Positions 8,271 to 49,039 of a DNA stretch of 54,253 nt are shown piece after piece. The notes under the pieces are model-generated. The model saw nothing but the letters and a program-made list of their open reading frames with translations, made no database searches and was not told the DNA's origin. The stretch's first letter is position 1; each line of letters starts with the position of its first letter. This DNA is from a virus (Duplodnaviria > Caudoviricetes), in the IMG/VR virus record IMGVR_UViG_3300017589_000044, positions 1 through 54,253 of that record, one strand, 5' to 3'. The translations under genes were made by a program, and so were the position numbers.

Positions 8271-11042
8271 TTGGCAAAGCAAAAATCATATCAGAAATTT
8301 ATTTACAAACTTCAAAGTAAAAGATTAAAAAAAGCAAAATGGAAACTTAATCTTCCGTTATCTGAAGCTATGAAGAATAAAAATGATATTGTTTCATTAA
8401 ACGATAGTCAGATACTTCGTTGGATTGATGAGTTAAATGGGAATACTGATTCTAATACTGTCGTTAAAAATATACAAAAACAAATTAAGATAGAAAAAAA
8501 GAAACCAAAAAGTCAAGAATCTCGGAATAATATTAAAAAATTGTATCAAGAGTTATATAATCTACAATATCAGAAAGATTATAATTGTTTGATTATGAAT
8601 TCCAATAAAGAATATGACAAAGCAAATGAAGGATATTCTATAAATGAAGTAATGTATCGTAGATTCATTGGTACTAATGGGGGTATAAAAAAATCTACGG
8701 TAGTATACGTCAATAACGAGAAATATGATGTTTTAAAAGAGAGAATGAATAATGGGCGTAATATGTTAAAAGAGATTGTTCCTGCAAAATTAGAAGCATA
8801 TCAAGCACTTATATGTAGTGGCTCTACTCCAGTAACACCGCCAAAAGGAATAATTGTTGTAAATGATTGCATTGTAAATTTTACAGATAATGTAATAAAA
8901 CTAGATGATTCAAAAATTGGTGAACCACAAATGGATATTATAGAAAACTATCCAATTGAATACATGGATTCAGATGGCTATGGTCTTATGACTCCAGAAT
9001 ATTCAAAAACATTAAACAAAGATTTATACGGAGAAGAATATGCAGATAAAACATTATCTGGCGTAAATACAAGATATGCATGGACAAAAGGTATGTTGTT
9101 TACATTTGATTACATAAAATTTGCAGAAGAAAAAGTAAACAAAAATTATATGATATTGGACGCATGGGGAGATTATCGTGATGTTAGAGAGTCACAAGTT
9201 ATATTAACAACGTCTATGCTGAAATTATGGGACTCATATAAGAACTGGGAAGATTATTATAATAATTGTGAAAAGAACCATTATCAATTTTCTGTGTCCA
9301 AAGCAACACCACATGAATTAGAGAATGTACGGAATGCAAATTATCAGTTTTTACAAAGTTATAAATTTACAGATGAAGAACTATATGCTCTTTGCAAGCC
9401 AACAATAGATGAAATAAATGATACGTTAGGTATGGATTATAGAAAAAGTATTGTTTTCTTAAAAGGAATGTATCTTGATGAAGATAATATTGACTTTATG
9501 GATAATGATTTCATAAAAGCATTGATGATTAACAAAAATATGATAGATGATCCGTTTGTATTAAGTAAGATTCATGGGATGATAAAGAAAAGAATCAATA
9601 TTGCTGCAAAGGGTTCTATTAAATTAAATGGGAATTTTGCAATTGTTTGTGGTGATCCATATTCTCTAGCTCAATCAATATTTGGATTAGAAATAACGGG
9701 ACTATTAAAAGAAGGACAGATTTATCATAAGTACTGGTCAGATAAAGGAGTAAAAGAAGTTTCCTGTTTTCGTGCGCCTATGACTTGTCACAATAATATA
9801 AGAAAGAGAAATGTCACAACAAATGATGAAATGGATAATTGGTATCAACATATAGAAACTGGTCTTATATTGAACTCTTGGGACACTACCTGTGATGCTC
9901 TCAATGGTATGGATAAAGATTCGGACACAGTATTTAGTACGGACAATGAAATAATCGTAAAAAACACACTTAACTCCCCTACTATTCAATGTATCCAAAG
10001 AAAAGCACCTAAGATAATTCCAACGGAAGAAGATTTGGTACAGGCAAATAAGTTGGCATTTGGAGATGAAATTGGTCAAACGACAAATAATGTTACTGGC
10101 GAAATTGAAGTACAAGCAGGATTTAAACCAGAAAGTGAAGAGTATCAAGTTTTAGAATATCGTATTATGTGTGGTCAATTGTATCAACAAAATGCAATTG
10201 ATAAATCAAAAGGAATTATTGCAAAATCAATGCCTAGAGAATGGTATGATAAGTCAGCTAATAAAATTTTACAAGACGATGACTCAGAAACTAGAAAACG
10301 AAAAGAATTTAATCTCCGTATTGTAGCAGACAAAAAGCCCTATTTCATGAAATATGTTTATCCAAAAACGATGTCAGAATATAATGATTATATTAAAAAC
10401 ACCAATAAGAAATGTGTAAGAGAATTCCAAATGACAATGAAAGAGTTATTAGAAAAGCCGAATAAAACGATTACAGAAAAAGACTTTGTTGATTATTATT
10501 ATAAATTAATGCCAGTAGGTATAAATCCATGTGTGATAAATAGGATTTGTTGGCTGTTTGAAGATTTATTTCAAGATTTTTTAAGAAAAAGAAATAACAA
10601 TATTGAATTTGATTATAGTGTTTTAAAATCAAATGTGGAATATAGCAGAAATGATTTTAAGAACATTAAAAATATTTATGAATCATACATAGATGAATTA
10701 CAGTTTTACCACCAGAAAATTAAAACGATTAAGATTGAAAAAGATGAAGTTGAGTTAGAGCGTCAACATATGGTAGATAAGTTTAAATCAAACTGTGAAA
10801 AGATATGTTCTAATGAAAATGAACTTTGTGATATTGTATTAGATATTTGTTATAAAACTAATAAATCAAAACAATTTGCATGGGACATATGCGGTGAAGT
10901 GATTATAAATAATTTACTATCAAAAAATAACAACACAATACATTATCCGAGAATGGTAAAAAGTAATGGAGAATTTGAATTTGGCGGATGTGAGTTTGTG
11001 ATGGACAGTAAGGAATATAGGAAGGATGAGAAATTATTATAA
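8271..11042 (+). CDS. yonO: YonO-like single-subunit DNA-dependent RNA polymerase (RdRP-related two-barrel family)
   Basis: DSDGYG, R..KG, FRAP and metal-binding ALNGMDKDSD motifs; AIDKSKG; 923 aa; lies upstream of the late cluster as in SPbeta. Confidence 0.9.
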   Translation: MAKQKSYQKFIYKLQSKRLKKAKWKLNLPLSEAMKNKNDIVSLNDSQILRWIDELNGNTDSNTVVKNIQKQIKIEKKKPKSQESRNNIKKLYQELYNLQYQKDYNCLIMNSNKEYDKANEGYSINEVMYRRFIGTNGGIKKSTVVYVNNEKYDVLKERMNNGRNMLKEIVPAKLEAYQALICSGSTPVTPPKGIIVVNDCIVNFTDNVIKLDDSKIGEPQMDIIENYPIEYMDSDGYGLMTPEYSKTLNKDLYGEEYADKTLSGVNTRYAWTKGMLFTFDYIKFAEEKVNKNYMILDAWGDYRDVRESQVILTTSMLKLWDSYKNWEDYYNNCEKNHYQFSVSKATPHELENVRNANYQFLQSYKFTDEELYALCKPTIDEINDTLGMDYRKSIVFLKGMYLDEDNIDFMDNDFIKALMINKNMIDDPFVLSKIHGMIKKRINIAAKGSIKLNGNFAIVCGDPYSLAQSIFGLEITGLLKEGQIYHKYWSDKGVKEVSCFRAPMTCHNNIRKRNVTTNDEMDNWYQHIETGLILNSWDTTCDALNGMDKDSDTVFSTDNEIIVKNTLNSPTIQCIQRKAPKIIPTEEDLVQANKLAFGDEIGQTTNNVTGEIEVQAGFKPESEEYQVLEYRIMCGQLYQQNAIDKSKGIIAKSMPREWYDKSANKILQDDDSETRKRKEFNLRIVADKKPYFMKYVYPKTMSEYNDYIKNTNKKCVREFQMTMKELLEKPNKTITEKDFVDYYYKLMPVGINPCVINRICWLFEDLFQDFLRKRNNNIEFDYSVLKSNVEYSRNDFKNIKNIYESYIDELQFYHQKIKTIKIEKDEVELERQHMVDKFKSNCEKICSNENELCDIVLDICYKTNKSKQFAWDICGEVIINNLLSKNNNTIHYPRMVKSNGEFEFGGCEFVMDSKEYRKDEKLL

Positions 11043-15867: not shown

Positions 15868-15894
15868 AGAGAGTCAGAAATGGCTCTCTTTTTT
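15868..15894 (+). terminator. Intrinsic terminator
   Basis: AGAGAGTCA-GAAA-TGGCTCTCT followed by a T run. Confidence 0.8.
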
Positions 15895-34563: not shown

Positions 34564-34581
34564 ATAAATATATGAAAGGAA

Positions 34582-35598
34582 GTGGATGATTTGGCTAGAG
34601 GTAGAGTATACAATAGGACTTTTACTCCAGAAAAATGGGAAAAAGTTTCTAAGAAAAACAAAGACATATTAACTGATTTCTTAGCAGAATATAGACAGCG
34701 TAAAAAAGCAAAAGGAACGATAGATGGATATTTTCAAGATTTGAGAATATTGTTCATTTATATTATGGAGAATTTAGATAATAGATGTATTTTAGAATTA
34801 AACAAAAAAGACTTTCGTGGAGTTGTATTGAGTTTGTCAGAAGATATGGATTTATCTACAAGTAGAGTAAATAGGATGAAAAGTGCTGTGAATAGTATGC
34901 TTACGTTTTGCGAGGAAGATGATGATTATGAGTATGAAGTAAACTATGCTAAAAAAGTAGCAGGACTTCCAAAACAAAGAGTTAGAGATAACGAAGACGA
35001 CTTCTTTTTTACATATGATGAATTCATAAAAGTACGAGATATTTTAGTTGAAAAAGAAGATTGGCAAAATGTAGTCTTATGGTCTATTGGATTTGATTCT
35101 GCTGGAAGAAAAAATGAGTTATTTCAAATTGACAAACATAAATTACTAGATGGAAATAAAACTAATATTGTTATTGGGAAAAGAAGTAAAAAGTTCCCTC
35201 TTGTGTATTTAGACGATACAAAAGAATTTATTAGAAAATATCTTGAAGTACGTGGTGATGATGAGATAGATTCTTTATGGATAAAAGGTACTGGAAAAGA
35301 TAAAACTTCTGTCACTCCTAATTCTTTATATGACAGAATCGTATCAATATCAAAAATATTATCTAAAGTGCGCGGTGATGAATGTAATATTTTCGTCCAT
35401 ACAATGCGACACGCTAGAGTTGAGTGTTTATTGCAAGGGGCAGATGACAGACTTAAAAATGCAGACGGTACTAATAGAAAGTATAGTATTGATGAAGTAA
35501 GAGTGTTTTGTCATCATGGTGATATTTCCACAACAGCCAGTTATGCAAAAGATCACTCAGAAGATACCATTAATGATATGTTTGGAATAATTGTCTGA
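34582..35598 (+). CDS. Tyrosine recombinase (YomM-like)
   Basis: Catalytic R (SAGRKNEL), K, HTMRH, H and Y (HGDISTTASY). Confidence 0.9.
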   Translation: MDDLARGRVYNRTFTPEKWEKVSKKNKDILTDFLAEYRQRKKAKGTIDGYFQDLRILFIYIMENLDNRCILELNKKDFRGVVLSLSEDMDLSTSRVNRMKSAVNSMLTFCEEDDDYEYEVNYAKKVAGLPKQRVRDNEDDFFFTYDEFIKVRDILVEKEDWQNVVLWSIGFDSAGRKNELFQIDKHKLLDGNKTNIVIGKRSKKFPLVYLDDTKEFIRKYLEVRGDDEIDSLWIKGTGKDKTSVTPNSLYDRIVSISKILSKVRGDECNIFVHTMRHARVECLLQGADDRLKNADGTNRKYSIDEVRVFCHHGDISTTASYAKDHSEDTINDMFGIIV

Positions 35599-35847
35599 CT
35601 TATAACCCTACCCTACATTTTTCAACATAATGCACAAATAAATTACAAAATTCCACAATTTTTTAGCATATCATATTTTAATAATCAAATGTTCAAAATA
35701 AAGTAAATATTTCTATTATACCAAAGAAACTGTATGGCAAACCATACAATTAATATGCCATAATTTACCAGTAGTCTACTTCAATTAAATTACCTATACT
35801 TTATGTTATTTAAAACTCATTTCGTAATAATATATAGGAGACGAAAA

Positions 35848-36054
35848 ATGTTTAGAACAAATCAATTGCGGAGAATAATGGGTGAACGGAAATTAAGTTT
35901 TAGACAATTAGCAAGAATGTCTGGAATTAGTTCAGGAGCTTTAAATCAAATAGAAAGGTGTGAAGAAGACCCAAAACAATCTACAATGATTGCAATTAGT
36001 AGAGCATTGAAACTTGACGTAACAGAAGTATTTAATTTGAACTGGCGAAAATAA
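35848..36054 (+). CDS. XRE-family HTH regulator
   Basis: LSFRQLARMSGISSGALNQIE; RBS AGGAG and ATG 35848. Confidence 0.85.
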   Translation: MFRTNQLRRIMGERKLSFRQLARMSGISSGALNQIERCEEDPKQSTMIAISRALKLDVTEVFNLNWRK

Positions 36055-36078
36055 AAGTGATTAGGGGAGATATTTGAT

Positions 36079-36273
36079 ATGTCAACAAAATGTGGGGTAA
36101 AAATTATAAAAGTGATAGGATATGTGGAAGGTATTATAGAAACAAGAATAATTGAAGAAGCAAATAGGTCTACTTATAATGAAGCAACACAGTTTATTGA
36201 GTCACACCATCATGATAATATTAGTTGGAAGATAATGCCATTAATATTTGAAAGAAGTGATTTTTCGCTATAA
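36079..36273 (+). CDS. Small hypothetical protein
   Basis: RBS AGGGGAG; terminator-like hairpin 36303-36333. Confidence 0.6.
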   Translation: MSTKCGVKIIKVIGYVEGIIETRIIEEANRSTYNEATQFIESHHHDNISWKIMPLIFERSDFSL

Positions 36274-36363
36274 CAGGTAAATACATAGCATCATTTAAAA
36301 CAGTCATTTTATCCTCGGATAAGGTGGCTTTTTCTATGCAAAAAATTAGAAAGGAGTTGGACA

Positions 36364-38085
36364 ATGGACATTTTTAGTATGCTGATGAAAGTTGGTTTTG
36401 ATAAATCAACAACGGATGCTGAATATAAGAAGTTAATAGTCGAGCTAAAAAAGAATAAATTTGATATAACACCAAGTATTGACTTTGCAAAATCAAAACA
36501 AGAAGCAAAAAAACAGGTTTCTGAAATTGCAAAAATATTTGAGAAAAAGTTAAACCTTGATCCGAAAGATGCCAATAGATATGCTAATCAGTATTATGGC
36601 GAATTATTAAAAGGCATTAAGTCTGTTGAAAAAGAACAAGTAAAATTAAATAGTCTTCAACAGCAAAAAATATCAGATGGTCAGAGTAAATACTATGGAA
36701 GAATAAAAGACAATCTAAAAGAAATATATAATTTAGAGAAGAAACTTCCATCTGCCAAAAAAGAAGAAACAGCAGAAATACGAGATCAGATTAAATTATT
36801 GGAAAAAAGAAATAGTAATAATTATGGAGCGATAGATAGAAAAGGATTAAAAGACAACTCTCTGCAATGGGAAATAAATAACACAAAAGTTCTATATGAA
36901 AGTAGATTAAAAGTAAATAATGCAAAAAATGTAGATACGTCTAATGTTTCAAATATAAAAAAAGAAACAAATGCCGTAAAAGAAAGAATTGCAGCAGAGA
37001 AAAAAGTTCAAACAGAAATACAAAAAAGAAACAGTTTGGAATTACAAAAAGGAAGAACGTCCAGTAATATTGATACATTTGTAAAGCAAAACTCTAAAAT
37101 GTCAAAAGAATCTGTTAATAATTTTAGAGAATTACAGAAAACAATCAATGGAGTTAATGCAAAAGGTCTTCAAGATGTAAACACTCAACTTTCTACTCTT
37201 AAAAACAGAGTAAAAGAAAATGGAGAGATGGGAAGAAACTTTTTCGGTGAACTGAAAAATAATGCTGGGAAAGTAGCGAATTGGCTCGGAGCAACTGGAA
37301 TTATTTTTGCTGGAATTAACGGAATCAGACAGGCTGTTACAGAGTTAAAAGAAGTCGATACAATCTTGACAGAAATATCTAAAACTTCTGATAGAACAGA
37401 ACAGTCCTTGAAAAATCTAGGTGCTAGTTCTGTTGGAGTTGCTAATAAATATGGTGCTACGATTAGCGGATATTTACAAGGTGTCCAAGAAATGTCTAGG
37501 GCTGGTTTTAGCGAGAGTCAAGCAGAAGGATTAGGAGAAGTATCATCTTTAGCACAATCGGCTGGTGATATGACATCAGAATTAGCAAATAAATATTTAA
37601 TTGCTACAAATTTTGCTTATGATTACAAAGGTTCTGTTGAAAAATTAAACGGAGTTTTAGATGCACAGAATCAAATTACAAATAGAAATGCTTTGAATAT
37701 GTCAGACCTTGCAGAAGCAACAAAGGTTTCTGCGTCACAAGCTGCTGACTCTGGAGTTGCAATAGACCAAATGACTGCATCTGTTGGTACAATGATGGCA
37801 GTAACCCAACAAGGTGGTGAAGTTGCTGGTCGTGCATTCAAAGGTATTTTAATGAATATTCAACAAGTCGCTGGAGAAACAGATGATGGTGATATTATTG
37901 ATGAAGAATCATTAAAAAAGGTAGAAGCAAGATTACATTCTGTTGGTGTTGAATCAGAGTACATGAAAGATGGAATAGCCACGCTGAGAGAACCAATGAC
38001 TGTATTGAAAGAATTAGCACAAGTATATAACTCTTTACCAGAGAATAGTGCTGACAAAGCTGGAATTATTGCTGACATTGGTGGC
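36364..38085 (+). CDS. Tape measure protein exon 1 (574 codons)
   Basis: RBS AAAGGAG; TP901-type TMP core (VDTILTEISK, EMSRAGF, GEVAGRAFKGIL); ends ADIGG at the intron 1 5' splice site. Confidence 0.9.
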
Positions 38086-38524
38086 AGAATTTGCCACGTT
38101 ATGCAGAAATGTATAACTAGAACATATTTAAATGCAGGTAATGCCTAAAGCCTTACACCACAATATAAAGGAAACTATTATATGAAGGTTTGAAAACGTA
38201 AGGATGTCACAATGGCTGTTCATGCAACGAAGTACCCTAACGTAATCAATTGATGAAATTGACAGTCAAGTCGAGGGTAAACGCTCAACGACTATTCCCA
38301 TGTAGGGATTTAGAATAAGAATAATGGTGCAAATCCAGAATATCTAAATCATAAGAAGTACGGCACAATCGCAAATGGTGTGGGTGAAATCCCCTTAAAC
38401 GGAAAAAGTATGCTCTTAACAGGTAAAGCTGAAGGTGAAGAAATAGTCTAAACATCACATGAAAGTGTGAGAAGTTGCTAATAAACAACTGGTTAGATGT
38501 TGCGAATCTAATTGAATATAATTG
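38086..38524 (+). ncRNA. Group I intron 1 in TMP (439 nt, ORF-less)
   Basis: P1 GTGGCA/TGCCAC; P2 with GAAA loop; P3 CATATTT/AAGTATG; R CTCAACGACTA 38284-38294; S GAAGAAATAGTC 38437-38448; P9 with GAAA loop; terminal G 38524; P10 ATTT/AAAT; splicing restores IGG|KYRGNQ. Confidence 0.9.
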
Positions 38525-38845
38525 AAATATCGAGGAAATCAACTTTCTGCATTATTGAGCAATTGGGATATGTACGAAAAAATGATGTCCGATTACCAAA
38601 ATTCAGAAGGTTCTGCATTAAATGAAGCATTAAAAACAGCGAATTCTTGGGAAGGTTTACTTAATCAGATTTCCAATAACTGGACTTCTTTTGTTGGAAG
38701 TTTTGTTACTGATGGATTGGCTACTGGTGCACTTAAAACAGTAAATGGATTAACAAAAGGAATAGATTCTCTTGTAAAAAGCCTAGGAGCATTACCAACA
38801 GTAGCTCTGGCTGCTTTCGGGTTTTTAGCTTTCAAGAACATTGGT
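38525..38845 (+). CDS. Tape measure protein exon 2 (107 codons)
   Basis: KYRGNQLSALLSNW...SEGSALNE...KNIG continues the TMP core; no RBS before TTG 38522. Confidence 0.88.
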
Positions 38846-39724
38846 AGGACAAATAGTTGTTCTCTATTCAAAAATAATATAATTGAATATGCCCTTCTTG
38901 CCTAAGAATAAATTCAAAGGTAGGATTGTTTCGTGCTAGTCACACGTTAATGTTCTATAAAATATACCGTAATTGAGATTTACTATGTCTCAGTGCTGGA
39001 ACGATAAATGGAATAAATAGTATTATATGGCTACAACGTAATCAGAAATGATAAGCGTGAATGCACTCTGAAAGGATACCAGTAATGGTAAGAAAACATA
39101 TAATAGTTCATAAGGCGAAAGCCTAAGTGAAATGTCACAAGACTAAACCCACTATCAGCAACGGACTCTTACTTTAGTAGGAAGTGTTCACAGACTAGAA
39201 ACGGTATCGAGTATATAGATAGTTTTATATGCTTGTAATGGATAGTCGAAACGTAGAGTAAACTACCCTCTTGACCGAGGTAAAATCAAAACAGTATTAC
39301 TAACTGTTCTATTTTTTATAGTACGTCAATGACGAAGAAATAGATTAATTTGTAGGTGTGTCACTACCTTAGGTTGGGCGAGTGTGACAAAATAATGGCT
39401 GGCTGTCATCCATCAACTACGGCAAAAAAATAGTAGAAAAAAGACATCTACGCATTGACATTTAAAAACAACAAAAATTAATTATCTAGTTCTAATTGAA
39501 CGTTGGTGAACTAAATTCACTTCTTCTATAAGAGCCATTAACTTGGCTATTATTTATATGCGTAAATATAGTACAAAATGATTTAAAAATTAAACTTCTC
39601 ATGTGTAAGTTTTTTTAAAAATGTAGAATATTATAAAAATTTATGTTAATTTTTCACAATTCGGCAAAAAACAACCATAAAAAGTGTTAAAATGGTAGCA
39701 AAAGACGTAGAGGAGTGATATAGT

Positions 39725-39907
39725 ATGAGTACAGAGGATTACAAAAAAATAGATCAGGGGGATGATAATATGGGAGCAGAAGCAATAACTAGGAATTTTG
39801 TATATGAAATGAAAGTTGATAAGAATTCAACGAAGAAAGAACCAACAGTAGGTAGAGATATAATCGAGGAAGCTAAAAAGGTTTTATTGAAGTATAAGGT
39901 GAAATAG
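39725..39907 (+). CDS. Small partner of the GNAT protein (putative antitoxin); intron cargo
   Basis: RBS GAGGAG (alternative start 39770); 1 nt upstream of the GNAT gene. Confidence 0.65.
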   Translation: MSTEDYKKIDQGDDNMGAEAITRNFVYEMKVDKNSTKKEPTVGRDIIEEAKKVLLKYKVK

Positions 39908-39908
39908 T

Positions 39909-40436
39909 ATGTCATTATTGATTCAAAAGCTAGATGTGAGTAACTATTGTTTTGTAAATAAATTTAAAGTTAATTCAGAAAGTTGTGAAAATCCAAAGCA
40001 CTATGAAGACTATTTGAAACAAAATGCAATAACTGATTTCAAGCTAGGTGTCGGAACAACTCATATCTTTATTGATGAAGATCAACAAAATATAATGGGA
40101 TATTTTACACTTAAATCTTCTGCTTTAGTGAAAAATATGGGAGAGGAACATAATTTTGGATATCCAGCTATTGAGATTGCAGAACTTGCAGTACACAAAG
40201 ATTATGAACGAAAAGGAATAGGAACGGATATGTTAGATTTCGTTTTTTCAAAAATTGATGACATAAAAGAAATTGTGGCAGTGCAATATGTATTGCTTTG
40301 TGCTGATCCTAAAGCTGAACAGTTTTATTCAAAATCAAAATTTAAATTTCAAAGAGTTAGAAATTTTGAACAGATACCAAGAGAACATTGGAATCAGCAG
40401 TGTGTACCTATGTTTGTAAAGTTAAAAGAAACATAA
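39909..40436 (+). CDS. GNAT acetyltransferase (AtaT/TacT-like putative toxin); intron cargo
   Basis: IMGYFTL, YPAIEIAELAVHKDYERKGIGTDML, AEQFYSK. Confidence 0.85.
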   Translation: MSLLIQKLDVSNYCFVNKFKVNSESCENPKHYEDYLKQNAITDFKLGVGTTHIFIDEDQQNIMGYFTLKSSALVKNMGEEHNFGYPAIEIAELAVHKDYERKGIGTDMLDFVFSKIDDIKEIVAVQYVLLCADPKAEQFYSKSKFKFQRVRNFEQIPREHWNQQCVPMFVKLKET

Positions 40437-40467
40437 AAAAGAACTATCTTAATTGATGGTTCTTTTT
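40436..40467. terminator. Bidirectional intrinsic terminator inside intron 2
   Basis: AAAAAGAACTATC-TTAATT-GATGGTTCTTTTT. Confidence 0.75.
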
Positions 40468-40529
40468 ATATGTTTCAATATAAGTTAATCCCCTACTTTA
40501 TTTATATAAATCAAAATAATAAAATATAA

Positions 40530-40654
40530 TTTTGGACAGAAATAAACACCCAAAACAAATGCTTGGATGCTTATCTCTAAAACTAAACAATTAAATTTTT
40601 GACAAATGGTCAGTTTGCCTTTTGAAAGTTTGTTTTCATATACGAAATCTACAT
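40530..40654 (-). ncRNA. Candidate minus-strand sRNA
   Basis: Promoter TTGCAT-16-TATACT with extended-10 TG (40688-40661); 16-bp hairpin whose G-U pairs form only on the minus strand (40538-40578). Confidence 0.45.
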
Positions 40655-40824
40655 AAATATAGTATATCACATATTTAATTAAATGCAAGTGTTTTCATGT
40701 TAAATTAATTACACTTTTATGCCTAAAGATACAATTTAACGAGAATGGGATTGACCGATCTCATTGCATATGAACTCATTTCTTTAGCACAAGAACACTT
40801 TTAATTACTATATTTGGTATTGAA

Positions 40825-40914
40825 TTATTTTATGTAGTTTGCGATTGCAAGGACAGCCTGAACAACTGTGCATACAATCACTACTACACTAGCGGGTTGT
40901 TGTAGTTTTTTCAT
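40825..40914 (-). CDS. 29-aa hydrophobic peptide, type I toxin-like (MKKLQQPASVVVIVCTVVQAVLAIANYIK); intron cargo
   Basis: RBS GAAAGTGAGG; own promoter TTGTAT-16-TACAAT with extended-10 TG; one predicted TM segment with basic ends. Confidence 0.65.
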   Translation of the reverse strand: MKKLQQPASVVVIVCTVVQAVLAIANYIK

Positions 40915-41014
40915 ATATGACCTCACTTTCCTGTATCGGCTCGTAAGTTTCATATACGTGTTTACCCATATACGCAATTACAATTGTATCACAATTCGAC
41001 ATTAATACAAGTCG

Positions 41015-41026
41015 GAACATTTGTTC
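41015..41026. promoter_or_regulatory. Firmicutes LexA (SOS) box GAAC-ATTT-GTTC
   Basis: Matches GAAC-N4-GTTC; lies between divergent promoters. Confidence 0.65.
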
Positions 41027-41084
41027 ATTTTTCGACAATATTTTTAATTGTAAATATTTTTTGGAATTATTTTCATATTCACTC

Positions 41085-41113
41085 TTGACATCGTAACTCC
41101 AAAGTAGTATTAT
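41085..41113 (+). promoter_or_regulatory. SigA promoter for the HTH-antirepressor operon
   Basis: TTGACA-17-TATTAT. Confidence 0.75.
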
Positions 41114-41140
41114 GGATATTGTAACAGGGAGGTATGAAAA

Positions 41141-41338
41141 ATGTCAGATGTGAGATTAACATTCGTAACAAAGGAATTGGCTCAAAAATTTGATATGACT
41201 TCTAATTATATTATACAAGTTGCAAAGTCTTTGAATTTAAGTGAATCAGAAATGAGAGAAGCTGGGAAAAGGACATACTTGTTTAGTGTAGAAGCAGTAG
41301 AAAAAATAGGAGCTAAATTGGAAACGAACAAAAGATAA
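41141..41338 (+). CDS. Small HTH DNA-binding protein; intron cargo
   Basis: RBS GGGAGG; TKELAQKFDMTSNYIIQVAK...AGKRTYLFSVEAVEKI. Confidence 0.75.
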   Translation: MSDVRLTFVTKELAQKFDMTSNYIIQVAKSLNLSESEMREAGKRTYLFSVEAVEKIGAKLETNKR

Positions 41339-41448
41339 AAGAGCAACCCATCTACTTTGCACGGTGTAGGATTGCTCATACATAAACTTACATCTTTATA
41401 TTATCATATTTCTAAAACTATATCAATGTATTTTTAGGAGGAAATAAT

Positions 41449-42201
41449 ATGAAAAAAGAAGAAATGAAAGTATTAGAAGTTGTAAAGGAAACAAAGATTT
41501 TAGGTAAAAATATTCAAATGTATGGAGATATTAGAAATCCTTTATTTGTTGCAAAAGATGTAGCAGAATGGATTGAACACAGTAATTCCCGTTCAATGCT
41601 GAAATCTATTGATGAAGATGAAAAGGAAGTAAACATTGTTTACACCCTTGGAGGAAATCAAGAACAGTGGTTTCTGACAGAAGATGGATTATACGAAGTG
41701 TGTATGTCTTCCCGTAAACCTATCGCTAAACAAATGAAAAAAGGAATTAAACTATACCTCAAACAAATTCGTTTAACTGGTGGTTATATCCCTGTTGTCG
41801 AAGAAGATGATGATGTGACTATATTGGCGAAAGGTATGAAAATACTTCAAAGAACAGTCGAAGAAAAAGATGCGATTATAAAATCACAACAACCAAAAGT
41901 AGATTCTTACAATCGGCTTGTAAATGCAAGCGGAACTATGGATATGAATACTGTTGCGAAAGAAGTCGGCATTGGTGAATATAAATTATTCGAATATCTT
42001 AGAAACAAAAAAGTTTTATTTTTGAATCCAGATGGAAATAATATTCCTTATGAGAGATTTAGAAAAGAAGGAAAATTTGAGGTATTTGAAAAATTATGTA
42101 GAGACGGAAGTTATCGGTCTGTTACTAGAGCAACCAGAAAAGGATTAACTTACATAGAAAAACTTTTACGAAAAGACAAAATTGTCGGTGGTGTTTTATG
42201 A
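41449..42201 (+). CDS. BRO-N plus KilAC antirepressor; intron cargo
   Basis: PLFVAKDVAEWIEHSN...FLTEDGLYEV..SRKPIAK...IRLTGGY; QPKVD...KLFEYLR...TRKG. Confidence 0.88.
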   Translation: MKKEEMKVLEVVKETKILGKNIQMYGDIRNPLFVAKDVAEWIEHSNSRSMLKSIDEDEKEVNIVYTLGGNQEQWFLTEDGLYEVCMSSRKPIAKQMKKGIKLYLKQIRLTGGYIPVVEEDDDVTILAKGMKILQRTVEEKDAIIKSQQPKVDSYNRLVNASGTMDMNTVAKEVGIGEYKLFEYLRNKKVLFLNPDGNNIPYERFRKEGKFEVFEKLCRDGSYRSVTRATRKGLTYIEKLLRKDKIVGGVL

Positions 42202-42431
42202 TGCACTTCCCTATTGCTACAAAATCATACTTGAAAGTTATCACAGTCAATGTAAGAGATTTTTCGCACATGGAAGAACATCATAGTCCAATTAATGAAA
42301 TTCGTAAAGTTAAGTCTTACATGAAAAAATCTAAAGATGAGTTTGAAATATGTGAATTATATATTATGCACCCAGAACTTTTAACAGCAGAAGATAAGAT
42401 TGCATTAGATTCTTATTTTATTAAATATTAA
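42198..42431 (+). CDS. Hypothetical protein; intron cargo
   Basis: Overlaps the antirepressor stop (ATGA coupling); terminator follows. Confidence 0.6.
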   Translation: MMHFPIATKSYLKVITVNVRDFSHMEEHHSPINEIRKVKSYMKKSKDEFEICELYIMHPELLTAEDKIALDSYFIKY

Positions 42432-42440
42432 CCAAAAATT

Positions 42441-42468
42441 AGAGAGTGGTTTTATATCACTCTCTTTT
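42441..42468 (+). terminator. Intrinsic terminator inside intron 2, between convergent genes
   Basis: AGAGAGTGGT-TTTAT-ATCACTCTCT-TTT. Confidence 0.7.
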
Positions 42469-42497
42469 CATTGTGCTAATTTAATTAAAACTGTATC

Positions 42498-42980
42498 TTA
42501 TCTTCTTGGTTTCCATTTGTGACCACAGCGACCACAGCGATTCATAGTCGCACCACTTCCAATAAATCCAGTCATAACACTAAAACCTTTTCGTCCTGTT
42601 ACAACTGTACTACTGCCACATTTAGGGCATTTTGGAGCAACAGAACTAGGATCATAATGTATTGGTGATTCAATAGCTTGATTATCCATTCCTATTATTG
42701 GAGATTCATAATAATGTTCTTTTGGTTCACATTTAACTATTCCAACATCTTTACACATAACTGTCTTATCCGTATCTTCATCAATTATTTGAACCCTAAT
42801 ATCATGGTCTACAAATGGTTGCATTATCAATTTTACTTCTTCTAATGTTAGATTGATTGCCATAGTGAATGGTGTAGAATGTCTAATATCTAAAGTTTGT
42901 TGTAAATTGTAACCTAACACTTCATCAAGATAAATTCCAGAATAAATACTATCTCCATTAATTAATTTTAATGAATACAA
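42498..42980 (-). CDS. Zn-ribbon protein with L7/L12-CTD-like N-terminus; antisense intron cargo
   Basis: CPKCGS...CGRCGHKW; RBS GGTGGAG; own promoter. Confidence 0.75.
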   Translation of the reverse strand: MYSLKLINGDSIYSGIYLDEVLGYNLQQTLDIRHSTPFTMAINLTLEEVKLIMQPFVDHDIRVQIIDEDTDKTVMCKDVGIVKCEPKEHYYESPIIGMDNQAIESPIHYDPSSVAPKCPKCGSSTVVTGRKGFSVMTGFIGSGATMNRCGRCGHKWKPRR

Positions 42981-43056
42981 GATGCTCCACCGCCTTTTCT
43001 TTTTAGTAGTTCTATATATACAATACTAACAAACATAAAATAATATTCCCAACAAT

Positions 43057-43085
43057 ATTATACAACAGTTTGATATTCAATGCAA
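43057..43085 (-). promoter_or_regulatory. Antisense SigA promoter straddling the intron 2 3' splice site
   Basis: TTGCAT (43085-43080, in exon 3)-17-TATAAT (43062-43057, in the intron). Confidence 0.6.
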
Positions 43086-46000
43086 GTAAGTTAGTTGCGT
43101 ATGGAACAGCTTTAAAATCAACGACGACCAGTGTAGCAGAATTAACGGCGTTAACAGAAGGATTAAATGTCCAACAATCTTTAAATGTATTGTCAACTCG
43201 TAATTTAACTAAAGCAAATATTGAAAAAATTCTAACAGACAACGGAATTGCTGCATCTGAGGCACAAAAAGCAGCAGCTACAATAACATCAACTACGGTA
43301 AATGCAGGTGCGACAGCAGCAACTACTGCTTATACAACGGCTTTATGGGCTAATATCAAAGCATTAGGTGTTTGGATGGTAACGAATCCCGTCGGATGGC
43401 TTATATTAGCTGGGACTGCTATTTATGGAGTAGCCAAAGCTACCCAAGCAGCTACTACTACATTTGCAGAACACCAAGAGAACGTTAATGGACTAAAAGA
43501 AAACTATGCTAAACTCAATAGTGAATTAGACGCTTTAAAAGGTAAGGATGATTTAACTGCTGGGGAAACTAAAAGATTAGATTATCTCGAAAGAAGACTA
43601 GCACTTGAAGAAAAGATTTTAAAAACTGCGAATAAAAAACTTGCTGAAAGTGAAATTTCTGGCAAAGGGGATATTACAAGTGATGGAATTGTCGGTGATT
43701 CACTTACCACAAAAGCAAAATTTCTCACAGTTGATACAGATACGTCAACTCAACTTAAATCACTTGAAGATGTTAGGAGTAAAATTCAAGAATTAGATTC
43801 AACATCTTCTAATTATGAATCAACTGTTGAAAGATTGACAAACCAAGAAGAAGATATCACTTTAAAATTAGAAGGTCAAAAAAATACTTTAGATGAATTG
43901 GAATTGAAATATTTAGATTATGCGAATAAAATTCAGTCGTATTTAGATGCTGGAGTTTTTGACGATGATGCTGAACAGAAAGAAAAAATGCAATCATTAG
44001 TTGATGAATATAATTCTACTGCTGATCAAATTGAGGCAAGAAAAATATCCATAGCAATAGAACTTGGTGATTCTAGTTATGTATTTGAAACAGATATATT
44101 TAAAAAAGCCGAAAAGGATTTGGCTGATTTAGCAAAACAAGGGAAATTAACTTCAGATACTTTAGCCGATAATAAATACAAAGAATTATCTGCTTTAATG
44201 GATTTATTCGGTATCTCACTTGAAGATGTTATCGATAAATTGAATGGTGTAACATCTGAATCTGAAAATGCTATGTCCCCTCTTACGTCTAGCGTTGAAG
44301 AATATGGAAAAGCAATAGATTCTCTCCCAACGAAATTAGGAGAACTTGAAGAAATTCAAGCAAAAGTAAATGACGGATATTCTTATAGTTACGATGAAAT
44401 TGAAAAACTAAAAGAAAAATACCCAGAATTACAAAGTGCCATATATAGGACTGCTGAAGGTTGGGCAATTGAAAAAGGTGCAGTAGATGAATTATATACG
44501 TCTACTGGAGATTTAGGTTCTCAGTATGTAAATGTTCAACAAGCAATGAGTGATGCTTTAAGTTCTGATATGGCTATCAGATTGAGTAATTTAGGCATAG
44601 AACTAGAAGGAATTAAAACAATTGCAGATGCTTATGCCGCTATTGCAAATGTAGGTAGGAATACTTTACAAAGAGCTGGGGCTAGTGTACCTAACCTCGT
44701 TACTGGTGGTATTATGGATAAGAGCATCCAAAATGCCATAGGTAAAGCAGTTGTTGGTAAAGAAGGAGTCGACTTTACAAATAATTATGCTGTCAACACT
44801 TCTAAATTTGATGAGTTGCAAAAAAAAATGAAAGACTTGAAAGCTGGAGGGTTTTCTGGTGGAAAGTCAAGTGGCTCTGGCGGTTCTAAAGGAAGTGGAG
44901 GATCTAAAGGTAGCGGTTCATCAAAAGAAATTGATGCTTATAAATCTGAATTAGAACAATTCAAAAAGTTAGAAGCTGAATTAGAAAAAGTACAATCAGA
45001 TATCTCTGTTAATGAAAAGAAATACAGTAATACAGAAGACGAAAAAGAGAAAATCGCCCTACTTCAACAAAGAATTTCGCTTACACAGAAAGAACAAGTT
45101 GCTCTTCATAATTTAAACACTGCTAGAGATAAAGAAATTTCTAAAAATGTCGCCCTTCTTAAACAAAAAGGTTTTAAAGTTGCTTACAATCCAGATTCAA
45201 ATGAACTTGAAATTAAGAATATGGAACAACTTAACAAATTAAAATCTGGTGACCAAGAGAAAACGAATGAGTTAATCAAAGAATATGAAGAACTCATTAA
45301 GACGACTGAATCTCTAAACGAAGCAAATCAAAAAGGTTCTGAATCATGGTGGGATAGTTCTTATAATTTGGAAAAATATAAAAAAGAAATTGAAGATGTT
45401 AGACGGACTATTTTTGACAAAGATATTAACGATATGGACTTCTCTACCCTATTCTTTGATGGTGTTTCTGGAAAAGAAAATGAGTTAATTTCTGCTTATG
45501 ATGGTATTATTGCGAAAATACAAAACGAAACAAAACGTGAGTATGCCACAGGATTGACAGATAAAGACGATTATATTCAAGAATTGATTAAGAAAGAAAA
45601 AGATTACGTAGACAAAGTAAAATCTGTAAGAAAAGGTATTTATGATGCAGAATTAGCTAGTAACGACCATCTGTTAGACTTGTTGAAATCAAGAGATAAC
45701 ACTAAAAATCGTCAAATTGATATTGTTGAACAGAAGATGAAAAATGCAATGAAACGTAGACAGTCTTTGATTGATGAAGATTATTCTGCTAATATTGACG
45801 AAATTCAATCTCTTGAAAAAGCATGGACTCAATACTACGATGACTTATTGAATACGCAAATTGAGTATTTAAACAAGCAGAAAGAAGATAAAGATGGTGC
45901 ATTATCCGCTGTTAATGATTTAATTGATGAAAAAATTAAGGCTTTGAATAAGGAAAAAGAATCTCTTCAAGCAGTAAATGAAGAACATGACAAAGCTTTT

Positions 46001-47587
46001 AAATTATCTCAATTGAAAGCTAATCTTGACAAGGCTAATTCTCAACAAACATCAAAAATTTATAGAAAAGGTCAAGGGTTTGTAGACGAGGTAAATTTAG
46101 ATGATATTGAAACCGCAAAGAATGAACTTCGTGATTTTGAATTTGAACAACAAATTGATGCAATCGACAAACAGATTGATGCTTGGGACAAATATAAAGA
46201 TAAATGGGCAGAAATTCCTACTGCATTTGAAAAGGAACAAAATAAACTCAAAGCTATTCAAGAACTTGGAGTAAATTGGGAAGATAAAATTTCTAATAAG
46301 CGTATTGATATTGTTGATACTTTCAAAGATAATTATATCGATTTACAAGAAGATATTCAAGATATATCAGATGAATTAGCGGAACACATGAGTAATGCTT
46401 ATCAATCAATGGTGGACACATTTGCGAAAATGGCTAAACTATATGAGGGTAATGGTTCTGATAAATTAAATGGTATGAATAATGGTGCGAAAACATTCTA
46501 CTCTACTAAAGATGGTTCTGCTCCTTCTGGTGCTGGAATTGGTGATAAAATACTTACCAACAATGGCACATATCAAATTGTAAATGCTAATACGAAAGGT
46601 GCTAATTACAACGAAAAAACGCAACTTTGGAGTATAAAGCTGGATAGTACAAAACGTACAATACAGGATTCTTTGAGAGGAACAGAAGATTTAACGGATA
46701 AAGTTATACGTGCATCAAGTACGATAGATGAAAATTCACAAGGTGTTAAAGGTAACTCATCATCTTTAGAATATTTGTCTGGTAATACAGATGAGAATAC
46801 TCTTTCTACTGAAGATAACACTTCAGCTGACCATTTGAACACTGAAGCATTATATAATTTAAAGTCGTCTATGGATAACTTTGAGTTTAATACTGGTGAA
46901 GCTGGAGCAATTGGTGGTGGAGGAATTGGTGGTAGCAGTAGCGACTACACACGTACATATTCATATACGTGGTCTGATGGAACGACAACTTCTTCGTCTA
47001 GTAGCAACTACAATACAGCAAGAGATGAAGCTGGGAAAAGCAGTAATACATCTTTAGTAACATCTTCTTCATCTAGCACAAGGAATAGTTCTAGTGGTGG
47101 TTCTAGTAGTAAAGGATCATCTATTGGTAGTTCCATTAAGAATACAGTTTCAAAAATTGGTAGTGCAATTAAAAACGCTTTTAGTAAACACGCAGATGGT
47201 GTAATTGGAATTAATTCACCAGAAAATTCTATTGTAGATGAGTTAGGCAAAGAATTGCGTATTGAACCAGACAGAGGTAGATTAGTTTCAATGTCTATGG
47301 GTTCTAGTGTTATTCCTGCTCAAATTTCAAAAACATTATGGAAATTCGGAGAAAACCCAACAAGCTCACTCTCTGACATGATTAGAAATAATCCAGATAT
47401 ATTGAACAGTATTCGACCTAATAATTTTACATCACCTAAACTTAATCTGAATTCATCTGCTCCAGAACAAAAAACTGAAATTAGTTATAACTTTGGAGAT
47501 TTGAATTTACCTCATGTAACTGATGCAAAATCGTTGAGTAGAGAATTACCATTATTGGTTAAACAAATGATAGAAAAAAGAAAATAA
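43073..47587 (+). CDS. Tape measure protein exon 3 (1504 aa)
   Basis: TNPVGWLILAG TM segment, long coiled coils, HADG..VDELGKE motif; no RBS before TTG 43070; junction reads KNIG|IFNASK. Confidence 0.9.
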   Translation: MFNASKLVAYGTALKSTTTSVAELTALTEGLNVQQSLNVLSTRNLTKANIEKILTDNGIAASEAQKAAATITSTTVNAGATAATTAYTTALWANIKALGVWMVTNPVGWLILAGTAIYGVAKATQAATTTFAEHQENVNGLKENYAKLNSELDALKGKDDLTAGETKRLDYLERRLALEEKILKTANKKLAESEISGKGDITSDGIVGDSLTTKAKFLTVDTDTSTQLKSLEDVRSKIQELDSTSSNYESTVERLTNQEEDITLKLEGQKNTLDELELKYLDYANKIQSYLDAGVFDDDAEQKEKMQSLVDEYNSTADQIEARKISIAIELGDSSYVFETDIFKKAEKDLADLAKQGKLTSDTLADNKYKELSALMDLFGISLEDVIDKLNGVTSESENAMSPLTSSVEEYGKAIDSLPTKLGELEEIQAKVNDGYSYSYDEIEKLKEKYPELQSAIYRTAEGWAIEKGAVDELYTSTGDLGSQYVNVQQAMSDALSSDMAIRLSNLGIELEGIKTIADAYAAIANVGRNTLQRAGASVPNLVTGGIMDKSIQNAIGKAVVGKEGVDFTNNYAVNTSKFDELQKKMKDLKAGGFSGGKSSGSGGSKGSGGSKGSGSSKEIDAYKSELEQFKKLEAELEKVQSDISVNEKKYSNTEDEKEKIALLQQRISLTQKEQVALHNLNTARDKEISKNVALLKQKGFKVAYNPDSNELEIKNMEQLNKLKSGDQEKTNELIKEYEELIKTTESLNEANQKGSESWWDSSYNLEKYKKEIEDVRRTIFDKDINDMDFSTLFFDGVSGKENELISAYDGIIAKIQNETKREYATGLTDKDDYIQELIKKEKDYVDKVKSVRKGIYDAELASNDHLLDLLKSRDNTKNRQIDIVEQKMKNAMKRRQSLIDEDYSANIDEIQSLEKAWTQYYDDLLNTQIEYLNKQKEDKDGALSAVNDLIDEKIKALNKEKESLQAVNEEHDKAFKLSQLKANLDKANSQQTSKIYRKGQGFVDEVNLDDIETAKNELRDFEFEQQIDAIDKQIDAWDKYKDKWAEIPTAFEKEQNKLKAIQELGVNWEDKISNKRIDIVDTFKDNYIDLQEDIQDISDELAEHMSNAYQSMVDTFAKMAKLYEGNGSDKLNGMNNGAKTFYSTKDGSAPSGAGIGDKILTNNGTYQIVNANTKGANYNEKTQLWSIKLDSTKRTIQDSLRGTEDLTDKVIRASSTIDENSQGVKGNSSSLEYLSGNTDENTLSTEDNTSADHLNTEALYNLKSSMDNFEFNTGEAGAIGGGGIGGSSSDYTRTYSYTWSDGTTTSSSSSNYNTARDEAGKSSNTSLVTSSSSSTRNSSSGGSSSKGSSIGSSIKNTVSKIGSAIKNAFSKHADGVIGINSPENSIVDELGKELRIEPDRGRLVSMSMGSSVIPAQISKTLWKFGENPTSSLSDMIRNNPDILNSIRPNNFTSPKLNLNSSAPEQKTEISYNFGDLNLPHVTDAKSLSRELPLLVKQMIEKRK

Positions 47588-47594
47588 AATATAC

Positions 47595-47631
47595 AGGTTG
47601 TCACTTTTTATATTAAGTGGCAGCCTTTTTT
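47595..47631 (+). terminator. Intrinsic terminator after TMP
   Basis: AGGTTGTCACTT...AAGTGGCAGCCT followed by a T run. Confidence 0.75.
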
Positions 47632-47649
47632 GATGAAAGGAGTTTATCA

Positions 47650-47901
47650 ATGAATGAACAAGATAATATCATGCTTGATACAATAAATCTACTTTTACAA
47701 AAAATAGAAAAGATTGCAAATCCAGATAAAACATATTCTGGTATTGTAACAGAAGTTTTACAGAATGGATATTATCAAGTTGAAATAAAAGATTCTGTCC
47801 ATAAGATTAAATCTGGATTCACATATACCGTTGGCGAAAGAGTCAATGTTTTGTTTATTCAAAGCAACAAAAACAACTTATATTTGTATCCAAACAAGTG
47901 A
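47650..47901 (+). CDS. Small baseplate-associated protein
   Basis: RBS GAAAGGAG and ATG 47650; DKTYSGIV...YTVGERVNV. Confidence 0.65.
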   Translation: MNEQDNIMLDTINLLLQKIEKIANPDKTYSGIVTEVLQNGYYQVEIKDSVHKIKSGFTYTVGERVNVLFIQSNKNNLYLYPNK

Positions 47902-47941
47902 TAAAATGATTATTTTAATTATATAAGAAAGGAGGAATATT

Positions 47942-49039
47942 ATGGCGTTAATGACAGGGGCTGTCTCCCCTACCCTATATTCAGTAGTTCCATTTGATGC
48001 TACAAAGAATTGTGAATTTACATTTACATATTCTGGTTCACAAGTATTTGCGAGTAAATTAACTGTTAGAAAAAACGACACAAACGCGATAATTTACGAT
48101 ACAAAAATTACGTCTATGAAGTTATCACATATACTTCCGTCTAACGTCTTAGCGAATGGTACGACTTATAATGCCACTATTGTCACATATGATGTAAATT
48201 ATAACTACTCGTATGACAGTAATTCTATTGTATTTACTTGTTTTACAACTCCAATTGTATCTTTTTCAAATCTTAGTAACAATGATGTGATCAGGAGTGA
48301 ATCTATCAATTTAATATTATCATATAGTCAGGCACAAAACGAGCCATTAAATGAGTATAGGATTCATTTATTAGATTTCGGTGGAAATGAGATATACAAC
48401 ACAGGAATTAGATATGTTGCAAAAGATGGATTGACTTCTAGTATCGTAGGATTCTCAGATAACAAATCTTATTCAATGTATGCTGATGGCAAAACTTTAA
48501 ATGGAATGGAAATTCGTATGATAGGAGTTCCGTTCACAGTAGAGTATATTCGACCAGATACATTTATGCCTGTTACTTTAGAGAATATTCCAGAAGAAGG
48601 AAGTGTAAAAATAACATCAAATTTTGTGTTACAAGAAGCAGATGAAGATGTTAGTAATTATACTTTTATTGATGGGAAAATGATTGATTTATCAAATGGT
48701 AAAAAAGTTACTTTTAGCAAAGGATACAATGTTGCAAACAATTTTACTATACAATGGGACTTGAAAAAACCAGAAGATTTTACAACTCTTTCGATTATGA
48801 AAAGTGGTAAATATAACATTACAGTCACATGGAACAAAGGAGATTTTGAAGGATACGGAAATTCTTGTTATGCTGAATTGATTGCGGAAGGAAGTAAATT
48901 GGGAACAGAAACGTTAAGATATATTTTGCAAAGCAATTTAATCCCCTATCCTTTAGATTCAGACTATATTGACTATTTTGTAAGAAAGAAAGATGGATTA
49001 TTTGAATTGATTATTAAAAACTTAGGAGGTGTTATTTAA
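47942..49039 (+). CDS. Baseplate/distal tail protein
   Basis: RBS AAGGAGG; beta-rich; follows TMP. Confidence 0.6.
   Translation: MALMTGAVSPTLYSVVPFDATKNCEFTFTYSGSQVFASKLTVRKNDTNAIIYDTKITSMKLSHILPSNVLANGTTYNATIVTYDVNYNYSYDSNSIVFTCFTTPIVSFSNLSNNDVIRSESINLILSYSQAQNEPLNEYRIHLLDFGGNEIYNTGIRYVAKDGLTSSIVGFSDNKSYSMYADGKTLNGMEIRMIGVPFTVEYIRPDTFMPVTLENIPEEGSVKITSNFVLQEADEDVSNYTFIDGKMIDLSNGKKVTFSKGYNVANNFTIQWDLKKPEDFTTLSIMKSGKYNITVTWNKGDFEGYGNSCYAELIAEGSKLGTETLRYILQSNLIPYPLDSDYIDYFVRKKDGLFELIIKNLGGVI

Follow-up and report, generated by a model that had tools for sequence, protein, structure and literature searches.

The window, as we call the whole 54,253-nucleotide (nt) stretch of DNA analysed here (IMG/VR virus record IMGVR_UViG_3300017589_000044, Caudoviricetes), is a viral record with an estimated completeness of 33%. 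Its large open reading frames (ORFs) are all on the plus strand, in an order that matches the late region of phage SPbeta. The gene for the tape-measure protein (TMP) is split over three of these ORFs by two intervening sequences, here named intron 1 and intron 2. The second of these is by far the longer, and between TMP exon 2 and exon 3 it carries an island of genes with a predicted promoter and predicted terminators of their own. How a continuous TMP message may be produced across this island is the subject of what follows.

The three TMP ORFs (36364-38148; 38522-38905, called ORF2; and 43070-47587, called ORF3) match consecutive positions of phrog_4211 (458-840, 840-944 and 1141-1676, respectively) and also match single intact proteins (P0025, L030). 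The gene is composed as follows:

36364..38091, plus strand: TMP exon 1 (PF10145; phrog_4211 458-840), with its 3' end within 38082-38091
38092..38524, plus strand: intron 1, group I intron (RF00028, 37.2 bits, E 1.5e-7 over 38075-38471)
38525..38845, plus strand: TMP exon 2 (phrog_4211 840-944), ending in the Gly codon GGT
43073..47587, plus strand: TMP exon 3 (1504 codons plus stop; phrog_4211 1141-1676)

Exon 1 can be aligned with the intact TMP of L030 as far as residue 483 and has a Shine-Dalgarno pairing of -8.5 kcal/mol. Exon 2 aligns to intact TMPs up to ...KDYG (Shine-Dalgarno pairing +0.1, that is, none), and exon 3 aligns to the intact P0025 from residue 1369. The gap between the latter two exons (38846-43072) measures 4227 nt. 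ORF3 is open for 1505 codons and is 41% identical over ~1165 amino acids (aa) to P0001 and P0002, which are relatives split in the same way. It has no evident means of being translated by itself: its first start ranks last among the 45 ORF starts that were scored for Shine-Dalgarno pairing (+2.8 kcal/mol, with 24 of the 45 at or below -8), and within the first 200 codons of exon 3 no in-frame start with Shine-Dalgarno pairing was found, the best value being -3.7; the same holds in two related loci, L002 and L009.

Across the Gly/Ile junction, intact metagenome relatives read KDYG/ITQ, while the joined exons would read KNIG/IFN in the window and KGYG/ITS in both L002 and L009. Amongst the alleles printed, the junction Gly codon is GGT in all seven interrupted ones versus GGA in all four intact ones. 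A group I 5' splice site requires U as the last exon base, and the difference between interrupted and intact alleles thus fits a splice site in use. The intact TMP of L010 was considered for placing the junction and set aside; it is a mosaic, alignable over the C-terminal 774 aa only.

The cargo of the gap amounts to 3.8 kb, with a minimum of six ORFs that are predicted to form three or more transcription units, and it includes no recognisable endonuclease. Its genes and signals, the latter from a consensus scan for promoter-like and terminator-like sites over 34000-48000, are listed here:

39725..40436, plus strand: cargo cassette 1, with a 60-aa ORF (39725-39907) and a GNAT acetyltransferase (39909-40436; PF13508, phrog_1758)
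40436-40467, plus strand: predicted terminator T1, 13 pairs, loop of 6, tail ATATGTTTCA; the final five stem bases are T
41085-41113, plus strand: predicted sigma-A-type promoter of the Ant cassette, TTGACA, 17 nt, TATTAT; 11 of 12 consensus matches
41141..42431, plus strand: cargo cassette 2, with a 65-aa ORF, the anti-repressor gene Ant (41449-42201) and a 77-aa ORF (42198-42431)
42441-42465 (42441-42468 with tail), plus strand: predicted terminator T2, 10 pairs, tail TTTCATTGTG
42498..42980, minus strand: antisense zinc-ribbon gene (160 aa), convergent on T2; Shine-Dalgarno pairing -8.6 kcal/mol

Ant has Bro-N and KilAC domains (PF03374, PF02498, phrog_130). The antisense ORF has weak zinc-ribbon matches, and in the Atlas it lies closest to clusters of zinc-ribbon proteins from phages and Bacillota; it was also considered as an endonuclease, for which no match appeared in Pfam, PHROGs or Atlas. 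A small ORF directly followed by a GNAT acetyltransferase is present both in the window (39725-40436) and in L009 (6545-7396), a layout that recalls GNAT toxin/antitoxin pairs; no family match was obtained for the small ORF.

An earlier note, made from the letters of the window, had placed two intrinsic terminators and a SigA promoter within the TMP pre-mRNA, and the scan, together with their position at the cargo ORFs, bears this out: all three lie between the end of exon 2 (38845) and the start of exon 3 (43073). By number alone such sites are near chance in the stretch scanned, with 78 promoter-like matches versus 69.8 ± 9.4 in shuffles and eight terminator-like matches versus 4.1 ± 2.1. 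We take T1, T2 and the promoter as real-looking cassette boundaries because of where they sit, at the ends and starts of cargo ORFs, and not because of these counts. The promoter, with both hexamers and a 17-nt spacer upstream of a gene as predicted sigma-A promoters have, ranks first of the 78 matches in the 14 kb; it ends 28 nt before the ATG (41141) of the 65-aa ORF, whose Shine-Dalgarno pairing (-12.2 kcal/mol) is the second strongest of the 45 starts. Both putative terminators consist of a G+C-containing hairpin and a U tract after a gene. The GNAT stop codon shares its last base with the first base of T1, which folds with -18.8 kcal/mol including its A/U arms (core stem, -8.8); flanked by an A-tract on its 5' side and a T-tract on its 3' side, T1 might be bidirectional. 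T2 (-14.4 kcal/mol) has a weak U tract (TTTCATT) and starts 10 nt past the stop of the 77-aa ORF, the last of the Ant operon; L002 has a hairpin of similar sequence in the equivalent position (9391-9410), behind the small ORF downstream of Ant.

Directly 3' of exon 2, and entirely upstream of the cargo, lies a block with the architecture of a group I ribozyme. The helices were located by hand and by folding:

38846..39281, plus strand: intron 2 ribozyme block
38903-05, plus strand: in-frame stop TAA in L1, the stop of ORF2, 20 codons into the gap
38964-70 / 39201-07, plus strand: P3, 7 base pairs (bp)
38993-99 / 39156-62, plus strand: P4
39033-61, plus strand: 29-nt family motif in the P5 extension, which also has a GNRA hairpin
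P6 hairpin, plus strand: located as well
39193-97 / 39243-47, plus strand: P7, 5 bp
39211-32, plus strand: P8, 7 bp
39253-66, plus strand: P9
39267-80, plus strand: P9.1

P3 and P7 each arise in separate unconstrained folds; combined, they would make up a pseudoknot of the kind that characterises group I introns. A 325-nt stretch of the block folds with a z-score of -3.11 (two of 100 shuffles were as good), and J6/7-P7 and J8/7-P7' resemble the RF00028 consensus. The 29-nt P5 motif provides kinship in sequence with accepted group I introns. It is present in 13 viral contigs and falls inside RF00028 matches above the gathering score in five of the six contigs tested (59.8-89.7 bits); L023 has no RF00028 match at E <= 0.1. 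BLASTN also matches the motif to named phages, in which it falls within the unannotated gap of a lysin gene and that of a helicase gene, both split. We call intron 2 a group I-type core by homology and architecture, and not by a curated model. In one contig with strong matches (L011, 1407-2244), three RF00028 matches above the gathering score (89.7, 80.4 and 62.1 bits) stand in tandem within ~840 nt.

Three elements could bring the distant exons together:

38882..38900, plus strand: guide site A, candidate internal guide sequence, pairing with exon 3 and exon 2
38946..38956, plus strand: site B, second exon 2 binding site, 11 consecutive pairs with 38835-38845, with G38946 opposite U38845
43068..43072, plus strand: intron 2 3' end, GUUU (P9.0, pairing with 39249-52) and the terminal G43072

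In site A, 38882-90 can pair over 9 bp with nt 1-9 of exon 3 (43073-43081) as P10, while G38891-C-C pairs with the GGU of exon 2 and 38895-900 with 38833-38. The TTGAATATGCC block of site A is identical in L028 and present in L026, and a hexamer UAUGCC/UGUGCC is found 14-50 nt into the element in the window, L002, L009, L026, L028, L033 and L035. Site B has no pairing with exon 3; a 6-bp analogue exists in L002 and L009 at about the same offset (+98/+99). P9.0 (4 bp, 43068-43071 with 39249-39252, the AAAC directly after P7') is at its canonical position. The last base of exon 2 is U38845, opposite a guide G (G38891 or G38946), and the gap ends in a G, as expected at the boundaries of a group I intron. 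The junction was chosen because of protein homology, the pairings not being decisive. Two repetitions of sequence in this region may be recorded. TATTCAA occurs in the same frame at 38865-38871, in the read-on of ORF2, and at 43074-43080, at the start of exon 3, and the first copy pairs locally with the guide region, mimicking exon 3. G39382 is followed by six bases complementary to a stretch (38939-44) just 5' of site B, which may be due to chance, an alternative splice site or a tertiary pairing.

The interruption recurs in related loci. Twelve metagenome loci with exon 2 were found; the TMP frame continues in five and stops 2-17 codons from the site in seven, so that with the window, L002 and L009, 10 of 15 loci are interrupted. 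By sequence they make up about six interrupted types and two intact types. Four other loci have a gap of 3.8-6.8 kb at the corresponding place, for two of which (L002 and L009) it is shown to be at the same codon:

Window: full gap of 4227 nt
L002: full gap of 3778 nt
L009: full gap of 4217 nt
L034: full gap of about 5.2 kb
L037: full gap of about 6.8 kb

In all five full-gap loci, Ant lies on the sense strand towards the 3' end of the gap, and sense-strand hairpin-plus-U sites stand just after cargo ORFs. The rest of the cargo varies even among close relatives: L034 and L037 differ by 1.6 kb between near-identical flanks, and the GNAT module is missing from the contig of a relative (run X2), where 39567 is joined to 41061. 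Exon 2 identity among the split TMPs is as low as 32%, and a layout kept at such divergence makes decay unlikely. The splice sites of L034 and L037 are ambiguous, several in-frame options scoring alike. The Ant frame is split into two overlapping ORFs in L009 (7851-8685) and in L034 (14711-15470), by frameshift, sequencing error or decay. For the block of L002 and L009, one reading of P7, P3' and P8 would move P7' and the 3' half of the core to the far side of the cargo; it depends on a resemblance between motifs, a 5-bp pairing in which L009 has an A.C mismatch, and a single change in P3 that may be compensatory, and we do not rely on it. Taken with protein homology, reading frame, the missing start of exon 3 and the group I-type core, this conserved split supports the view that the gap 38846-43072 behaves as an intron.

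The window also encodes a candidate for the polymerase that would transcribe the split gene:

8271..11042, plus strand: homologue of the YonO-type single-chain RNA polymerase, candidate late-gene polymerase (TBLASTN match to yonO)
36302..36329, plus strand: terminator-like hairpin just upstream of the TMP start (-14.0 kcal/mol)
47595..47626, plus strand: predicted terminator after the TMP gene (-17.4 kcal/mol)

With the 8271-11042 ORF as TBLASTN query, 38 phage records were matched; in the SPBc2 record, the match (62076-63302, E 4.7e-23, 30% identity) is located within the annotated yonO (61356-63875). The homologue stands upstream of a collinear block of late genes, the order yonO, exonuclease, terminase, portal, integrase-like gene and TMP being common to the window and SPBc2. 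The portion of PMC5467207 used here describes the 37 late genes of SPbeta as made by YonO in a single operon starting upstream of yonK, with little pausing by the enzyme; the earlier note, too, has YonO transcribing the SPbeta late genes. Sense-strand stem-loops are annotated in the SPBc2 record within the stretch that YonO transcribes. Similarly, sense-strand terminator-like hairpins lie outside the intron in the late region of the window (14619-14640, 15868-15889 and 36302-36329), the last of which the late transcript must pass to reach the TMP gene. T1 and T2 resemble in energy the two hairpins that flank the TMP gene. In view of these hairpins elsewhere in the late region, the intron adds no transcription problem beyond those already present.

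We propose that the cargo consists of self-contained cassettes (the GNAT pair; the operon of small ORF, Ant and small ORF; and the antisense zinc-ribbon gene) to which T1, T2 and the promoter belong, and that a group I-type intron houses them, with its catalytic core (38846-39281) on their 5' side and its 3' splice site (G43072) on the other; this intron would interrupt the TMP gene at a conserved Gly/Ile junction. Expression of the cassettes could be left to host RNA polymerase, which would start at their own promoters and end at T1 and T2. The TMP would be made only when the late transcript crosses T1, T2 and the antisense gene, and the polymerase that does so would probably be the phage's YonO-type enzyme, which would also pass the similar hairpins elsewhere in the late region. 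The 4227-nt intron would then splice in cis, joining 38845 to 43073, with the distant 3' splice site located via P9.0, the terminal G and the 9-bp pairing in the guide region. We give this combination, late transcription through the cassettes by the phage polymerase and splicing of the 4.2-kb intron in cis, a probability of roughly 0.45. The earlier note had offered read-through and trans-splicing as a pair of options; the read-through option fits the YonO homologue, the SPbeta late operon and the hairpins elsewhere, while the trans option found no positive support, the core being wholly 5' of the cargo and no significant helix bridging it.

Several observations weigh against our proposal. To our knowledge, a 4.2-kb intron with an antisense gene is far outside the range of phage group I introns. 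RF00028 gives no match for 38846-39300 at E <= 10, whether 9 kb, 1.4 kb or 371 nt are searched (filters may drop a weak match), so intron 2 falls short of 50 bits; the corresponding blocks of L034 and L002 are likewise without a match, although the same model does find intron 1 and the introns that share the P5 motif. The relatives have diverged too far for an alignment that could show covariation in the core. In site A, exon 2 pairs over three contiguous bp, with six more past an internal loop, and site B competes with it through a 6-bp P10 to the nearby G39382, where splicing would end the protein after 16 more codons. The 9-bp P10 and the 4-bp P9.0, from which the earlier note expected help in either long-range or trans pairing, both exist, but they do not single out the junction: it scores 12 among 6539 in-frame combinations, of which others score 12-13, and the exon 3 pairing energy was reached by 54 of 1000 shuffles (53 of 1000 for exon 2). 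Finally, the consulted portion of PMC5467207 reports nothing on the behaviour of YonO at intrinsic terminators.

The exons could instead remain unjoined at the RNA level, giving either two TMP proteins (exons 1 and 2 up to the TAA at 38903, and ORF3 from an unconventional start) or a silent ORF3 in decaying prophages. In favour of this, ORF2 meets a stop codon of its own after 20 codons of the gap, the intron 2 element goes unrecognised by Rfam, the Ant frame is split in L009 and L034 (by decay or sequencing error), and the window record is incomplete, with the completeness given above. We nevertheless consider this doubtful: ORF3 stays open for all its 1505 codons and retains its 41% identity over ~1165 aa to equally split relatives, it lacks Shine-Dalgarno pairing or a start in all three loci tested, the split persists across TMPs down to 32% identity in exon 2, and GGT in interrupted versus GGA in intact alleles fits a used splice site. 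If the exons are joined, the joining could take place between two RNAs, one with exons 1 and 2 and the core that ends in the cargo and another, begun in the cargo, that supplies the 3' splice site together with exon 3, brought together by the guide pairing and P9.0. Terminators between the two halves in all five gaps speak for such an arrangement, as do the 9-bp exon 3 pairing in the window and a 10-bp helix between the two edges of the cargo in L009. In L034 and L037, moreover, Ant ends ~65 nt from exon 3 and the scan lists no terminator between them, so that an Ant transcript would enter exon 3; the zinc-ribbon ORF in L002 and L009 would likewise run into it. In the window, however, the core is complete 5' of the cargo and the second RNA would contribute only a G, 4 bp and 9 bp. 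No helix bridging the window cargo is significant (38 of 300 and 125 of 300 shuffles were equal), and the stretch before exon 3 is filled by the antisense gene, sense promoter matches there reaching just 9 of 12. We know of no naturally trans-spliced group I intron in phages, and none came up in a literature search at the level of titles. Joining in trans is unlikely in our judgement.

Splicing in cis might also use a nearer site. A compact intron (38846-39382), guided by site B and with G39382 as its last base, could replace use of the distant 3' splice site or occur besides it, and would lead to a truncated N-terminal TMP. It would have an 11-bp P1 with a G opposite U38845 and a 6-bp P10 (39383-88 with 38939-44) one base from P1, which together give the top combined score of 17, and the 6-bp site recurs at the same offset in L002 and L009. 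There is no P9.0 for G39382, though, and the product stops after 16 codons and leaves ORF3 untranslatable; L002 and L009 have no P10 of at least 4 bp for that guide G inside their conserved 5' blocks, and 6-7 bp arise by chance at further Gs of the cargo. We regard the compact intron as improbable. Least of all do we expect the cargo to be excised from the DNA in lytic growth by recombination between short repeats. TATTCAA stands in the same frame at 38865-71 and 43074-80, such that a deletion would keep the frame, and an integrase-like gene lies upstream (34582-35598). Pairing of both copies with one guide sequence would, however, be enough to account for a 7-nt repeat, and SPBc2 has the same integrase gene (yomM) beside an intact TMP gene. 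No contig in four metagenome DNA runs joins across 38845-43073, contigs being weak evidence of absence. A search of sequencing runs for the stretch listed no RNA run.

The RF00028 score of intron 1 lies below the gathering score of 50. Its 5' splice site can be placed only to 38082-38091: alleles without the intron read GG/K or FG/K, and the preceding base in the window is C. Intron 1 is 0.43 kb long in the window and in L002 (5440-5883), while in L034 (7970-10000) it is ~2 kb with a D5-like ORF; it is absent from L009, and a metagenome contig from run X1 joins 38086 to 38532. L002 has a further TMP interruption (3517-4999) at profile positions 719/722, with a 395-aa ORF that has a weak endonuclease match.

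Searches for relatives in viral contigs with ORF1 gave none that could be confirmed, and those with an exon 2 alignment returned the L002 contig only. Megablast of 36000-48000 against phages yielded no match, BLASTN of the L002 block against phages gave two short matches only, and an exact 18-mer of the P7 region had no match in viral contigs. Rfam in gathering mode detected a tRNA and a skipping-rope RNA in the whole window and nothing more; in E-value mode, nothing relevant was returned for 35500-44500. Two MAFFT alignments intended for a custom covariance model (407 and 391 columns) exceeded the length that allows calibration and were of poor quality in P7-P8; restricting the model to the 5' half would mean circular reasoning, since the shared motif had served to choose its members.

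Elsewhere in the window, the following may be noted:

34582-35598, plus strand: integrase-like gene, upstream of the TMP gene

In SPBc2, the same integrase gene (yomM) adjoins the intact TMP gene. The skipping-rope RNA (11938-12015, 58.6 bits) and the tRNA (12368-12439) are found just 3' of the YonO homologue and before the exonuclease gene. The YonO transcript of SPbeta starts upstream of yonK and of an unannotated non-coding RNA, according to the part of PMC5467207 drawn on here, and the location of the two RNAs in the window is similar to that of the SPbeta non-coding RNA near this start. Three Ant-like (anti-repressor) ORFs occur in the 54 kb (3114-3980, 28788-29639 and 41449-42201), one of them intronic and one inside the structural gene block. 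A free-standing HNH endonuclease ORF (31201-31935) is located in the structural gene region.

The closest counterparts of intron 2 are phage group I introns with a single ORF, such as the lysin intron of Twort-like Staphylococcus phages and the helicase intron of Bacillus phage vB_BceM_WH1 (as annotated), which have 29-36 nt of the P5-region motif in common with it. Like intron 2, they interrupt an essential gene and have an in-frame stop soon after the 5' splice site, internal coding DNA and a short tail to the terminal G. Each carries one ORF of homing-endonuclease type of ~0.5-1 kb, whereas intron 2 holds 3.8 kb with at least six ORFs, a promoter, two terminators and an antisense gene; also, the motif-sharing introns are found by the Rfam model and intron 2 is not. 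As for the cassettes, in the immI region of phage P22 an ant gene equipped with a promoter and a terminator of its own is flanked by late genes, and an antiterminated polymerase reads through it. There, as in the window, an anti-repressor cassette with promoter and terminator lies in the late transcription path and the downstream tail genes need read-through, and immI may serve as a functional precedent for the passage of a cassette. The late region of SPbeta (SPBc2 record) likewise includes opposite-strand genes (yonI, yomL) and annotated stem-loops in the path of late transcription, though its TMP gene, yomI, is uninterrupted. Unlike both, the window has its cassette inside an intron within a gene, and splicing is needed besides read-through. 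In the split group I introns of organelles, the halves come from separate loci and are held by extended pairing, with the break in a peripheral loop. As proposed for the window, they join exons far apart by means of a group I ribozyme, and the break is likewise peripheral; the halves in the window, in contrast, are on one strand 4 kb apart with no significant bridging helix.

For the wider group, it is quite possible, if short of probable, that a clade of YonO-encoding SPbeta-like phages of Bacillota keeps an island of lysogeny-type genes in a group I intron of the TMP gene, the anti-repressor always present and the other genes variable. The intron would be a safe harbour for 4-7 kb of independently transcribed genes, even antisense ones; terminator-blind late transcription and splicing would restore the frame, and the exons would be kept tethered in the meantime through additional binding sites, which in the window amount to 11 bp for exon 2 and 9 bp for exon 3, with weaker counterparts in L002 and L009.

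In annotation, each TMP gene of this clade is broken into two to four ORFs with no relation to one another; the clade's proteins retrieved from the protein collection, P0001 and P0002 (the size of exon 3) among them, are such fragments. The system offers a test of whether YonO-type polymerases ignore intrinsic terminators, and of how a ribozyme finds a 3' splice site that is transcribed ~1 minute after its core. If the splice is real, we would know of no group I intron in a phage or bacterium that comes near intron 2 in size or gene content, and of none before it with complete transcription units rather than a single homing-endonuclease gene. It would imply that introns can serve as insertion-tolerant sites for accessory or lysogeny genes within essential structural genes.

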